A DNA stretch of 64,000 bases from Candidatus Spongiisociaceae bacterium (GTDB lineage: Bacteria; Actinomycetota; Acidimicrobiia; Spongiisociales; Spongiisociaceae): positions 1,996,189 to 2,060,188 of the forward strand of contig OZ241841.1 in assembly GCA_965202665.1 (NCBI GenBank). The letters are read 5' to 3'. Positions 895 through 7,056 of this stretch are shown here, one piece after another. Positions within the stretch are counted from its first letter, which is position 1. Each line of letters begins with the position of its first letter. A program made the position numbers and the translations under genes. The notes beneath the pieces were generated by a model. It worked only from the letters and a program-made list of their open reading frames with translations. It was not told where the DNA came from and ran no database searches.

Positions 895-915
895 CGCTGG
901 TTCCTCCGTTTTAAC

Positions 916-950
916 GGAAAGGGCGCCCCGCAAGCGGGGCGCCCTTCCTT
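916..950 (+). terminator. GC-rich hairpin downstream of the betaine-binding protein gene
   Basis: GGAAAGGGCGCCCCG-CAAG-CGGGGCGCCCTTCC forms a long perfect stem about 20 nt after the stop and is followed by TT. The U-tract is weak, as is often seen for terminators in high-GC actinobacteria. Confidence 0.5.
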
Positions 951-1178
951 ATGGATTCGCCGACCATCGTGACCATAATCCAGGTGGCCGGCGAGCCCGC
1001 GCGGCGGTTCGCGGAACTCGAAGGGAACCCAGTTCCCGGCGGAACTGGGGGAGTCCGCAGAACCTGCGCTGGCACCCCCAAACATACCATGCCGGTGGGA
1101 ATATTGTCAAATGCCCGTAAGGCGGATGCGGGTTTATCCGACAAGGCGGCGAACGAAGCGCCGTCCTGTGGAAGTCCT

Positions 1179-1251
1179 TAAAAAGACCCGGCCCCAACAG
1201 GGCCGGGTGGTCAAGTGTTTCAAGGGCCTAACGGCCTTGAAACGTAGCGCT
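1179..1251 (-). ncRNA. candidate ~70-nt small RNA, copy 1 (hairpin plus intrinsic terminator)
   Basis: The minus strand carries the promoter at 1258..1287. Next comes the hairpin GUUUCAAGGCC-GUUA-GGCCCUUGAAAC (1217..1243). Then the terminator ACCCGGCCC-UGUU-GGGGCCGGGU (1186..1208) is followed by CUUUUUAAGG. There is no ATG in the transcript. Confidence 0.5.
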
Positions 1252-1257
1252 AGCGTC

Positions 1258-1287
1258 ATTATACACATTTGTCTTTCGGGTTGTCAA
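1258..1287 (-). promoter_or_regulatory. sigma70/SigA-like promoter of small RNA copy 1
   Basis: On the minus strand: TTGACA (1282..1287), an 18-nt spacer, then TATAAT (1258..1263). Both hexamers match consensus. Confidence 0.55.
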
Positions 1288-1295
1288 GCCGTCCG

Positions 1296-1395
1296 CCGAA
1301 TTTCTTCATCATCTCCTGGGCCGGTGGATCGACACTGTTGCCTCGGGGTAGCTGGCGGGGCCATGCTCGTTCCGTATGACCACCGGCCACTGGGG
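1296..1395 (-). pseudogene. remnant of a second NYN-domain gene (3' end only)
   Basis: This stretch aligns to the 3' end and an internal piece of the intact NYN gene at 1975..2712. It has no start codon, carries an internal deletion and abuts the IS481 fragment. Confidence 0.4.
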
Positions 1396-1397
1396 CG

Positions 1398-1724
1398 CTA
1401 GGCGTACTTGGCCAGGACGTTGGTGACGGTTTGGTTGTTGCATAAGTGAGGACGATCAGCCGCATCCTCCGCCGCCACGGGATGTTGCGTCTGTGGGAAT
1501 GCGACCCGCTGACCGGCGAACCGCTCAAAATCTCTCCCGGGCCGGTGGTGCGGTATGAACGTGAACGGCTTGGTGAGTTGCTGCATATGGATGTTAAGAA
1601 GCTTTCTTCCATACCGCCCGGCGGTGGATGGAAGACCCACGGCCGGGGCAACGCCCCCGCCGGAGGGGCGGGGTGGACTTTTGTGCACTCTGTCGGAGGA
1701 ACACTACCAACCAGCAGACTGTAA
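1398..1724 (+). mobile_element. IS481-family transposase gene fragment (degenerate, no intact ORF or ends seen)
   Basis: ORF 1446..1724 translates to ISRILRRHGMLRL..DPLTGE..RYERERLGELLHMDVKKL..IPPGGGWKTHGR..FVHS. This matches the HTH-to-integrase-core junction of IS481 transposases. It breaks off before the catalytic core and lacks the N-terminus. Confidence 0.7.
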
Positions 1725-1846
1725 CCAACCTACCGGCCATGTACATCTAGGAACAAAGACCTCCCACTGGTCTCTGGCGGCAATCAACCTGTTTCGCGGA
1801 GGCGGGTTTGCGCGGCGGGGCGACGCGCGGTCTTTTGAGAGCGGTT

Positions 1847-1918
1847 AAGAAGACCCGGCCCTAACAGGGCCGGGTGAGTAACTGTTTCAAGGACCTAACG
1901 GCCTTGAAACGTAGCGCT
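1847..1918 (-). ncRNA. candidate ~70-nt small RNA, copy 2
   Basis: Same architecture as copy 1. The only hairpin-1 difference (C to U) falls at the bulge position. The terminator stem CCCGGCCC/GGGCCGGG is kept, and the U-tract is weaker (UCUUCUUAA). Confidence 0.5.
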
Positions 1919-1924
1919 GGCGTC

Positions 1925-1954
1925 ATTATACATATTTGTCTTTCGGGTTGTCAA
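1925..1954 (-). promoter_or_regulatory. sigma70/SigA-like promoter of small RNA copy 2
   Basis: On the minus strand: TTGACA (1949..1954), an 18-nt spacer, then TATAAT (1925..1930). It starts 21 nt after the NYN gene stop codon (1975..1977). Confidence 0.55.
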
Positions 1955-1974
1955 GTCGTCTGCCGATTTTTTCT

Positions 1975-2712
1975 TCACCATCCCCGGGGTCGGTGGACGG
2001 ACCCCACTGCCTCGGGTAGTTGGCAAGATGTGAAATCCGCTTTTGACAGTTGGTACCACCAATGTCCGCCCCTGCCATCCGTCGGCTTGCCCCGCAGATC
2101 CCCGGCTCTTGGAGAGGGGCTGGGGTTAACGGTGCCGATTGGGGCCCGTAGGCGACATGCTTGGATGGGCAACCGCAGATCGCTGTCGTTGGAGATGACG
2201 ATTGCGGCGTCGACGCGTCCTTTTAGTACATCCAGTAGCAGATGCGAGGCTACGTTCACGTCTGAGCCTTTTTCTTCGATTCGCAGATAGGAGACCATGA
2301 ACCGGGCGTTGGGAACGGCTGCGCCCTGCTCGTTCTGTATAACCACCGGCCACCGGGACGTGACGATCGAAGGACGACCCTCTTGGTCTTTGGTCGCAAG
2401 TAGCCCGTTTCTCACCCTGGTGCTGAAACGGCCTTGTTCCAAGTGGTCGATGGAGCGGTGATCCTGTAACGCTCTAACGTAGGCATCTTGGTCCAGGCGC
2501 CCTTGGCGGTTGTGTTGACCGTCGATGAAGGCGGTGCAGTAGACGATCCGCTCGATTACCGCTCCCTGCTCCGTCCAGTCGCGCCGCCGGTCGATCAATC
2601 GTTGGCTCAGCTGGCGGAGGTCGAGCCATCGCCATTCGGGGATTCCCCGGCCGAACAGGGCCCTGCCCCCGTAGTAGAGGTTGAAGCCGTCAATGTACAC
2701 GCCCACTTTCAT
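1975..2712 (-). CDS. NYN-domain (LabA/PIN-like) putative ribonuclease
   Basis: Only the last 245 codons of track ORF 1975..3549 are coding. The ATG is at 2712..2710, preceded by [22 protein letters not shown]...[14 protein letters not shown]...[12 protein letters not shown] is the NYN/LabA signature. The upstream part of the track ORF is antisense to ppc. Confidence 0.8.
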
Positions 2713-5511: not shown

Positions 5512-5531
5512 CCCGCGCCGGTCAGGTTTTA
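5508..5531 (+). terminator. hairpin terminator at the ppc stop, between convergent genes
   Basis: CTGACC-CGCGCC-GGTCAG is followed by GTTTTAAAG. It overlaps the ppc stop and the stop of the convergent gene. Confidence 0.45.
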
Positions 5532-7056
5532 AAGTAAACCGCCGTCCGCCGGGACCCTTCCATCCGCAGTCGGCCTTGGTCCCGTAACCGCCGTAGCAGG
5601 TGGGTGGCTCTGGTGGGGTCAATCAGGCACAATTCGGCTACTTCGCTCCGAGTTATGGAGCCGTTGGCCTCCACATAGTTCATCACCAGCCGTTCCCGTC
5701 TGGCCCACCTGCTGGCCCGCTGGTTTAAGCCAGTCCCAGATTCAACTGGATGGATTTGGGGCAACGGCGCTGTTGGGCCTTGGAACTGGTATTCATTTCT
5801 GGCCTCGTAAAATTCCATCAGATCCGACAGGGGAAACCGTTGGCCGTTGCGGCTCCCCTCCCTAAGTTGCCGGACCATTTGCTTGTCGGCCAATCCGGGG
5901 GCGACGCGGGCTACAACCTGGCGTGGGTCGCTACCGCCGTAATCGGGCGGCGGGCGCCCCAGCAACAGCTGTCCCTCAAAAATACGAGCGATGCCCCGTC
6001 CGGTGCGTTCCACCAGGCCGGCCCCTTTGAAAGCATCGACCAGCCGGGGATTGCGCGCCCGGGGAGGAGCGATTATTAGATTGGCGAGGGTTATCCCCTC
6101 CGGAAAGCCGCCGGGGTTGGAGACCGTTAGCGCGCCGTCGCTGATCTGCACCAGCGTCATTCCCTGATCCGCGTAGTCGCGATGGATGAGGGCGTTGGCG
6201 ATCAGTTCGCGGATGGTTACTTCGGCGAAATGAGGCAAACCGATGCGCTGGGAATCGAGATCCATTTCTTCTTCGGAGTTGCGGGCCCGCACCCGGTCGG
6301 ATATTTCCGCCATTGCCTTGAGCAACGGGATGCGCCGTATCTCATTGACCCGTACCTGCAGATGATCCAGCTCTTGAAAGCCGACTTCGTAGGCGGGCAG
6401 ATGTTTGGCGATGGCCTTTTCTTTGCCGAATAACAACAAAGCCCCTACCGTGATGTTTTCCTCCGAGTCGGTGAGGTTCAGGGCTTGCAGAAGGTCATGG
6501 TCGGAGAGACTGGTTAGGGTTTTGTCGCCGTCTGATTCCGCCATCTCCCGGAAACGGGAAAATTCGGCATCGGAAAGATCGCTCTTGGTCGCCGCAGATA
6601 AAGTTACGCTGGAAAAATCCAGCACGCCGATGCTGCCCGCTCGCCCCACCACTTATGGGGCCGCATAGGAAGACACTCCGGTTGCCCGTGTATGTCCAGC
6701 GTTCGGCGTAGGAACTTGCCGGACTTGGTGGAAACAACATCCTGTCCAACCGGGACCTTAACGGCGATCACTTCCTTGCCGTTGATGGGTACCACCTGTA
6801 CGGCGGCATCTACCGCTGGTTCGGTGCGGCTGGCGATCAACGCTTGCAGTCGCTCTGGATCTGTGTGCCTGCCGTGACGAGGTTCAGCTCCGGTGATATT
6901 TCCTTGGTCGTCAACCCCGACCAGAAGCCAGCCTCCGCGTCCGTTGGCTAAACAGACCACCGATTCCACTAGATCCTTGTCGTTTGCGCGACTTTTGAAC
7001 TCGACGTTGAGCGTCTCGCCTTCGGAAACCAGGCCCTGGAGAGTTGTAGTGTCCAT
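5522..7056 (-). pseudogene. AlbA_2 (Schlafen-like) + HATPase_c_4 + C-terminal wHTH putative regulator (RecG-like family), interrupted by a frameshift near 6640..6655
   Basis: Track ORFs 6604..7056 (AlbA_2 N-domain: ETLNVEFKS...VVCLANGRGGWLLVGVDD) and 5522..6652 (ATPase-like plus wHTH) overlap by about 50 nt in different frames. The total span is not a multiple of 3. A join of ...PMRPH|VVGRAGSIGVLDF restores a typical family member. Confidence 0.7.

Follow-up and report, generated by a model that had tools for sequence, protein, structure and literature searches.

The 64-kb window of contig OZ241841.1 from a Candidatus Spongiisociaceae bacterium (all positions given below are window coordinates) contains an intact gene for an NYN-domain nuclease and, downstream of it, two copies of a small-RNA unit, both on the minus strand. 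The NYN gene sits between ppc and an OpuAC transporter gene; RNA unit A adjoins its 3′ end, while unit B is accompanied by the remains of an NYN gene. Comparison with related loci argues that this is very probably a real small-RNA gene that is functionally coupled to the NYN gene. The features of the locus are as follows.

2712..1975 (−): intact NYN-domain nuclease gene, 245 amino acids, LabA/MARF1-like fold (Pfam NYN PF01936)
1954..1846 (−): unit A, comprising promoter, hairpin and terminator
1954..1925 (−): promoter of RNA gene A, TTGACA-N18-TATAAT, 12/12 consensus matches, same position kept in relatives
1918..1846 (−): RNA gene A, long form, ~73 nt predicted, with AGCGCU leader, hairpin 1, core tail, core hairpin and U-tract
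1910..1884 (−): hairpin 1 of copy A, 9 bp, a bulge and 2 bp, apical CCGUUAGG
1883..1853 (−): conserved core of copy A, tail AGUUACUC and stem ACCCGGCCCU/AGGGCCGGGU
1446..1724 (+): IS481-family transposase fragment (NCBIfam NF033577, E = 4.7e-10)
1300..1397 (−): remains of a decayed NYN gene upstream of copy B, consisting of its 3′ end and an internal piece (blastn, tblastn and alignment)
1287..1179 (−): unit B, comprising promoter, hairpin and terminator
1287..1258 (−): promoter of RNA gene B, TTGACA-N18-TATAAT, 12/12 consensus matches
1251..1179 (−): RNA gene B, tail CUUGACC, hairpin 1 at 1243..1217 and core hairpin at 1208..1186

The −35 hexamer of promoter A begins 20 nt past the NYN stop codon (TGA, 1977..1975); promoter-like sites number 0.5 on average when the region is shuffled. 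The start of RNA gene A, predicted from the position of the −10 hexamer, would give a transcript with the leader GACGCCAGCGCUAC, followed by hairpin 1 (GTTTCAAGGCCGTTAGGYCCTTGAAAC), in which nine base pairs, a bulged U or C and two further pairs are found at 1910..1884 and again at 1243..1217. The single-stranded stretch AGUUACUC separates hairpin 1 from a GC-rich second hairpin of 10 bp (ACCCGGCCCTGTTRGGGCCGGGT; 1875..1853 and 1208..1186), which runs into a U-tract. The folding energy of each RNA is about −37 kcal/mol (z = −4.7 for A and −4.0 for B against shuffles), and the hairpin 1 motif occurs exactly twice in 64 kb, against an expectation of zero. A covariance model designated R1 scores copies A and B at 105.5 and 100.6 bits, and a second, R2, scores them at 46 and 47.7 bits and detects these two copies only across the window.

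Copy B arose by a duplication that extends from 1178 to ~1397. Positions 1178..1356 match 1845..2024 at 85.6% over 181 nt, while a separate 44-nt piece (1354..1397) matches the interior of the NYN gene (2317..2360) at 84%; the NYN pseudogene of copy B has therefore suffered an internal deletion of ~290 nt. Counted on the alignment, identity between the duplicates is 29/30 in the promoter and ~72/80 in the RNA, and lower in the NYN remnant. Hairpin 1 differs between the copies at the bulge only, and the second stem is paired in both, a closing U-A in one being U-G in the other. The IS481 fragment, which covers only profile positions 96–152 of 284, sits between the RNA units and abuts copy B. 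An original prediction, made from the letters of this stretch alone, had described this arrangement largely as we find it: a consensus promoter past the NYN stop, a ~70-nt unit with a bulged hairpin, a GC-rich stem and a U-tract, a second copy next to an IS481 remnant and with the decayed 3′ end of an NYN gene attached, an RNA better conserved than the NYN remnant, and a hairpin 1 difference confined to the bulge beside intact second stems. Its promoter distance of 21 nt is corrected here to 20 nt.

Anatomy of the RNA across lineages

Comparison across lineages places the conserved part of the RNA elsewhere than first supposed. The universal element has the form ...YC-RCCCG-(4–5 nt)-loop-(4–5 nt)-CGGGU-U-tract, which corresponds to the second hairpin, taken in the original prediction for a terminator, and not to hairpin 1, taken there for the body of the RNA. 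This core comprises a 5′ tail ending in YC, a 9–10-bp stem and the U-tract, as exemplified by AUACCACCCGUUCCCggcaGGGGACGGGUUUUUU in Mycobacterium and AUACCGCCCGCCCCCucuGGGGGCGGGUUU in Rhodococcus. Among 14 sequences, all retrieved by protein, the nine-pair stem is paired at every position in 14/14, and a tenth, apical pair is present in eight. The five basal pairs (R-U, C-G, C-G, C-G, G-C) are invariant save that R-U is either A-U or G-U, while position 6 appears as G-C, U-A, C-G or U-G. Ten G-U wobbles occur in the stem. Since a wobble keeps an RNA helix and breaks a DNA palindrome, these pairs, together with a U-tract that is specific to one strand, argue for function at the level of RNA.

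Promoter-like hexamers with at least 8/12 consensus matches precede 28 of 41 RNA copies, as against 5% of random positions, and those with at least 9/12 precede 19 of 41, as against 0.85%. The promoter stands at a fixed distance from the core, with the spacing between the −10 hexamer and the first base of the stem being bimodal. In most lineages it is 10–15 nt, predicting a short form of ~35–40 nt with a 5′ tail of 4–8 nt. A spacing of 49–52 nt accommodates a long form that has a 5′ hairpin in addition to a palindromic leader of the AGCGCU type and is found in the window clade and in loci L069/L082/L088, L078, L084 and L099 (loci outside the window are designated by L numbers); the sequence of this 5′ hairpin is wholly different between clades.

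Within the window clade, the sequence of hairpin 1 shifts while its pairing is kept, for example from GUUUCAAGG/CCUUGAAAC to GGUUCCGGG/CUCGGGACC. In 20 long-form RNAs, nine of the 11 pairs of hairpin 1 have changed on both sides, and 91.5% of alignment cells are paired, compared with at most 62% when the partner is slid by 1–3 columns, figures that come from an alignment fitted to the structure by covariance model. Hairpin alignments made with MAFFT fell out of structural register, and covariation was counted on model-fitted alignments or manually. The expectation that the hairpins would be conserved and covary in relatives was thus borne out for hairpin 1 (9/11 pairs), and the core stem remains paired throughout. 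Across the lineages compared, hairpin 1 is a lineage-specific 5′ extension and the core is the conserved body of the RNA.

A very improbable explanation is that no functional RNA exists, the hairpin being the intrinsic terminator of the NYN gene or a palindromic DNA site for a protein, with fortuitous promoter hexamers. The hairpin and U-tract do form a textbook terminator at the NYN 3′ end (a GC-rich stem and U-tract on the promoter's strand, in both orientations of the RNA gene), and the stem reads alike on both strands. Terminators, however, need no sequence conservation, and here the base of the stem and the 5′ tail are invariant even though the NYN proteins are only ~50–60% identical. The recurrence of promoter hexamers at fixed distances, far above the random rate, also speaks against this explanation, as do the joint inversion of U-tract and promoter at some loci (see below), the loss of DNA symmetry through G-U wobbles, and the duplication of extra RNA copies without the NYN gene.

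The RNA was predicted to belong to no known family, and Rfam agrees: a scan of the window region against Rfam 15 at permissive E-values returned no relevant family (top score 17 bits, with the gathering threshold at 40), and five other loci likewise matched no family.

A further candidate structured RNA of ~165 nt lies nearby at 915..1110 (−), behind a third promoter (TTGACA-N18-TATGTT, 10/12, extended TG). It ends in a strong terminator (945..915) facing the OpuAC gene. Its leader at the 5′ end, GCCAGCGC, is also that of the long-form NYN RNA, but the body is different. It is kept only in L001 (4806–5000) and L004 (4252–4450), and its best Rfam match, isrB, scores 27 bits, below the threshold of 35.

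Linkage between the NYN gene and the RNA

Loci were collected through the NYN protein alone, and the DNA past the stop codon was inspected. In 17 of 17 lineages a core RNA lies no more than ~160 nt from the NYN 3′ end, under a sigma-70-like promoter of its own. The NYN proteins of these lineages are 51–87% identical to that of the window, and their flanking genes differ, giving unrelated neighborhoods.

L001, L002, L004, L066: window clade, NYN 72–87% identity
L068: between TsaD and ClpB genes, NYN 67% identity, core RNA
L069: NYN 64% identity, core RNA
L099, L100, L101, L102, L104: NYN 59–64% identity, core RNA
L090–94: mycobacterial 24.5-kb plasmid family, NYN 59% identity, core RNA
L097: Mycolicibacterium plasmid pTY66_02, core RNA
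L095: Rhodococcus pyridinivorans plasmid pC, conjugative, core RNA
L096: M. chimaera plasmid 4, core RNA, inverted
L112: IMG/VR contig, NYN 55% identity, core RNA

The four window-clade loci share the order AlbA_2 gene, ppc, NYN, RNA units and OpuAC, and carry two or three RNA units each; L036, a 3.17-Mb chromosome of a Ca. Spongiisociaceae bacterium (Acidimicrobiia), has the same arrangement. More than one RNA gene per NYN gene (two or three copies) is found at 10 loci, with the extra copies forming separate transcription units 200–700 nt apart. These extra units arose independently in different relatives: the 3′ end copied along with the RNA is that of NYN in the window, L001 and L004, and that of the convergent OpuAC gene in L002 (3796–4415), L066 (4826–5415) and L036 (1482–1844), the RNA gene being duplicated or triplicated.

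In 14 of the 17 lineages the RNA gene is co-directional with the NYN gene. In L096, L101 and L102 it is inverted and convergent with NYN, with a promoter (TTGCGC-N17-CATACT, TAACGT or TACAGT) and a U-tract on its own strand. That promoter and U-tract flip together indicates an independent gene and not a feature of the NYN 3′ untranslated region. The same orientations bear on the improbable idea that the RNA acts by base pairing, either as a type I-like antisense to the NYN mRNA or in trans, with NYN a mere neighbor or processing enzyme. The RNA has its own promoter and terminator, as do classical small RNAs, and wherever its gene is inverted (three loci), the 3′ end of an NYN transcript that reads through would be its perfect complement. 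Against this, the predominantly co-directional arrangement offers no consistent antisense geometry, the free tail of the short form is only ~4–8 nt, with the remainder held in a hairpin of about −20 kcal/mol, and the duplex energy of the tail and 5′ arm with the −70..+45 region of NYN is no better than that with shuffled targets in 13 lineages (z −1.9 to +1.2).

The reverse test started from the RNA. Metagenome contigs scanned with the core RNA pattern only, TTACYCACCCGGCCC-N3-6-GGGCCGGG, yielded 19 loci, of which 18 are genuine and one, L087, lacks a U-tract and matched by chance. An NYN homologue (49–66% identity to the window) lies upstream on the same strand, ~50–160 nt away, at 15 of the 18, three of these being truncated: L072, L076 (N-terminal 91 amino acids only) and L079 (C-terminal fragment only). 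The association is not circular, because the search pattern holds no NYN sequence; having been picked with a fixed stem sequence, these loci are informative on linkage and not on stem variation. The remaining core RNAs, at L074 and L084/L089, are orphans without NYN. The NYN gene and the RNA are therefore linked in both directions, across unrelated contexts and plasmids, as the proposed pairing of a small RNA with an NYN RNase-fold protein had implied. Moreover, lineages whose NYN is only ~50% identical to that of the window have identical or almost identical RNA cores; the RNA is thus more constrained than the protein.

This linkage is asymmetric in its decay, in the way usual for antitoxins. 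Among the ~245-amino-acid actinobacterial-clade loci no intact NYN gene was found without the RNA, and the RNA is kept beside decayed or truncated NYN genes at window copy B, L001b, L004b, L072/L076 and L079. Truncated NYN genes on pSMC-4_2 and a Prauserella plasmid have not retained the RNA. As to the orphans, the two core RNA copies of L074 (2248–2290 and 3083–3125) flank a 209-amino-acid open reading frame of unknown function beside a Fic gene, and the long-form RNA of L084 (1573–1654) lies between an HNH/DUF222 gene and a citrate synthase gene.

The breadth of the linkage also disposes of the notion that the unit forms the end of an insertion sequence (IS) or miniature inverted-repeat transposable element (MITE), or a clade-specific housekeeping small RNA merely syntenic with NYN, which is already contradicted and retains almost no probability. 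Copy B does abut an IS481 fragment, and an IS110 fragment lies between the RNA copies of L001. Nevertheless, the pair occurs in 17 lineages with unrelated neighbors and mostly no IS nearby, and the window holds just two copies, linked to NYN rather than to an IS and lacking inverted terminal partners.

Whether NYN homologues elsewhere carry the same downstream RNA depends on their relatedness: those of the actinobacterial clade do, and those of at most 31% identity do not. In IMG/VR, 13 distant homologues (~30% identity, a 208-amino-acid subfamily) have no core RNA, and only the close homologue L112 has one. The core DNA pattern gave no matches over viral contigs, and phage records contained one distant NYN match only (30% identity). 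NYN genes from proteobacterial plasmids and other sources (Serratia, E. coli, Xanthomonas, Thiothrix, Leptospira) are followed by plain terminators or by nothing, and gave no R2 match. Because the distant homologues show no counterpart RNA, the pairing is, as far as sequence comparison reaches, a property of the ~245-amino-acid actinobacterial clade and not of NYN proteins in general. A scan of the genome collection used a pattern that included the hairpin 1 loop (CCGTYAGG...), which was too loose for GC-rich genomes and biologically too narrow; one of its 60 matches was genuine by covariance model score (L036). Among the distant homologues, those of L106 (E. coli, 4.6 kb) and L098 (Serratia, 3.5 kb) reside on ColE1-type or mobilizable plasmids where NYN (~30% identity) is one of 3–6 genes, with a plain terminator only downstream.

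Genomic settings

By the genes around it, the NYN–RNA pair is an occupant of mobile or conflict-type settings. PLSDB contains 174 plasmids with NYN homologues of any relatedness, only ~25 of them actinobacterial, and ParA is near NYN in three of four mycobacterial plasmid loci examined. The island of L100 carries PIN/Phd toxin–antitoxin genes, AAA_14/DUF4143 and T5orf172, and other loci place the pair beside Wadjet JetCD, beside a FokI-like gene with AAA_15, or beside transposases with Fic (one locus each). A tRNA-Glu gene lies ~40 nt past the RNA terminator of L100 (4868–4942, −), which suggests that the island was inserted at a tRNA gene.

An AlbA_2 (Schlafen-like) gene occurs near the pair in five independent contexts.

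Window: 5522..6652 (−)
L068: 7547–8750
L078: 4184–4918
L090: 3919–5139
L102: 275–2089

The AlbA_2 protein also has a HATPase_c_4 domain in the window, L068 and L102, and a helix-turn-helix in the window, where it weakly matches PADLOC Argonaute-associated profiles. On the mycobacterial plasmid the gene is convergent and directly follows the RNA. AlbA_2 may be a third component or a mere island neighbor.

Repeats were noted at three loci: GC-rich tandem repeats upstream of NYN in L068 (3740–3930); a direct repeat of ~35 nt from the NYN 3′ end, immediately past the stop codon, in L099 (4735–4805); and, on the M. intracellulare 24.5-kb plasmid L090 (3860–3935), iteron-like direct and inverted repeats (ACGTAATGACGTAAC / GTGACGTATATACGTCGTTACGTCAC) clustered in the stretch from the RNA terminator to the AlbA_2 gene.

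A possible RNA-controlled nuclease and its known counterparts

The protein partner belongs to a large family, with 6,395 database clusters at 90% identity (E ≤ 1e-3) and 112 at 50% identity (E ≤ 1e-30). The window protein matches Pfam NYN at 28.9 bits (gathering cut-off 24.2, E = 1.9e-6). A sequence search of the PDB with it gave no match; only a fold search succeeded. Its AlphaFold2 model (predicted local distance difference test score, pLDDT, 88.8; predicted template modeling score, pTM, 0.81) has as its best solved neighbors in Foldseek the LabA-like VPA0982 (2QIP) and the MARF1 NYN domains (6FDL, 5YAA), at probabilities of 0.99–1.00 and template modeling scores of 0.61–0.63 normalized to target. 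Residues D8, E147, D151, D176 and D178 are invariant across 40 homologues, as is a C-terminal GxHWW...QLP...W extension, and a ~50-residue β-rich insertion is absent from the solved fold relatives. The invariant acidic residues and the modeled fold are consistent with an active metal-dependent nuclease. The protein also matches the PADLOC profile for HEC-09 (PDLC04163; E = 1.3e-24, 85 bits; best stretch residues 2–101), an NYN/MARF1-like candidate defense gene known from within Hma systems (Payne et al., bioRxiv 10.1101/2024.01.29.577857).

We hypothesize a module of two genes, one encoding an NYN-fold endonuclease and the other, adjoining the 3′ end of the first, a very small RNA that is transcribed strongly from its own promoter; the core hairpin of this RNA would be transcript terminator and conserved functional body at once. 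The RNA would be a dedicated ligand that NYN recognizes sequence-specifically. We tentatively favor an antitoxin-like mechanism, in which an abundant RNA inhibitor would keep the nuclease inactive by a logic analogous to that of type III toxin–antitoxin systems, such that a fall in RNA synthesis or stability, as upon plasmid loss or phage infection, would release it. More speculatively, NYN may trim the long form to the core. The window clade (Acidimicrobiia, Ca. Spongiisociaceae-like) has duplicated the RNA gene, and its predicted RNA is longer by the AGCGCU leader together with the additional hairpin on the 5′ side. We lean toward inhibition because no intact NYN was found without the RNA, because RNA genes outnumber NYN genes (10 loci with two or three copies), because the RNA survives beside decayed NYN or alone (L074, L084), and because the settings are those of addiction and defense modules.

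The main rival, in our estimate an unlikely one, is that NYN requires the RNA as a subunit, activator or specificity factor, the two forming a ribonucleoprotein like Rsr–Y RNA or IscB/TnpB–ωRNA. The identical linkage data apply to it; NYN was never seen without the RNA, the RNA sequence is better conserved than the protein, and strong constitutive promoters, as predicted here, would suit a structural partner too. On the other hand, the short form has practically no variable guide-like segment, with the loop and upper stem alone varying. Intact orphan RNAs and RNAs beside dead NYN genes persist, which is easier to explain for an antidote, and RNA gene copies are more numerous than NYN genes.

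Several observations weigh against an antitoxin-like inhibitor dedicated to NYN. First, a required cofactor RNA would produce the same pattern of NYN never occurring without its RNA. Second, the defining features of type III systems are absent, there being no tandem-repeat RNA upstream and no ToxN-like fold. Third, distant NYN homologues (at most 31% identity; proteobacterial plasmids and viral contigs) have no recognizable core RNA, and the tested E. coli representative of HEC-09 gave no phage protection (bioRxiv 10.1101/2024.01.29.577857). Fourth, covariation in the core stem is confined to 1–3 positions, because the stem is nearly invariant. Finally, we infer transcription, protein–RNA binding, inhibition and NYN toxicity from sequence.

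In Rfam and the searchable literature we found no description of the RNA or of the NYN–RNA pair, and literature searches on NYN with small RNAs, RNA antitoxins, type III toxin–antitoxin systems or mycobacterial plasmids turned up nothing pertinent. The module is, on the loci compared, widespread in Actinobacteria, including clinical Mycobacterium avium-complex plasmids. It may well be an unrecognized class of protein–RNA conflict module in which a primary transcript of ~35 nt serves as antidote or licensing factor of an NYN endonuclease, and the first NYN-based, type III-like toxin–antitoxin or defense system; when the mechanism is established, the chance that it will prove to be genuinely novel as a class is substantial. 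A functional pairing would add a new RNA family and a new control of NYN/PIN-like nucleases by a minimal hairpin RNA, and would supply a partner for the large family of hypothetical proteins annotated as "NYN domain-containing". It could also account for the lack of phenotype when HEC-09-type genes were tested alone, and flanking non-coding DNA belongs in tests of HEC-09-like defense candidates. More broadly, it bears on whether RNA antitoxins or cofactors exist beyond ToxN-type systems.

Among known systems, HEC-09 is close on the protein side, sharing with the window NYN a profile match, the MARF1-like NYN fold, the conserved aspartates and conflict-island contexts. It differs in having been described as a single protein gene, with no RNA partner reported (bioRxiv 10.1101/2024.01.29.577857); the window NYN is not embedded in an Hma system, and proteobacterial homologues at ~30% identity lack a recognizable core RNA. 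LabA/DUF88 (2QIP) and the MARF1 NYN domain (6FDL, 5YAA) share the fold and the Pfam NYN match, whereas the β-rich insertion and the C-terminal extension are the window protein's own, and no solved relative is detectable by sequence. Rsr–Y RNA and IscB/TnpB–ωRNA resemble the pair in that a non-coding RNA gene adjoins the gene of its protein and is kept across taxa; they differ in showing no sequence or structural similarity, in the absence of a guide-like variable segment from the short form described here, and in the NYN partner. Type I toxin–antitoxin systems are not matched either, no excess complementarity to NYN −70..+45 having been found in the 13 lineages.

The type III toxin–antitoxin systems (ToxIN, CptIN, TenpIN) remain the most instructive comparison. 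They have a tandem-repeat RNA array upstream, with a terminator before the toxin gene, and a ToxN/AbiQ fold, whereas here a single hairpin with its own promoter lies downstream, sometimes inverted, and the window protein has an NYN/PIN-like fold; none of the structural features that define type III membership is found in the NYN–RNA module. What the two share is an endoribonuclease beside a small, structured and highly expressed (here predicted) RNA, a residence on plasmids and in defense or mobile islands, and orphan or excess copies of the RNA.

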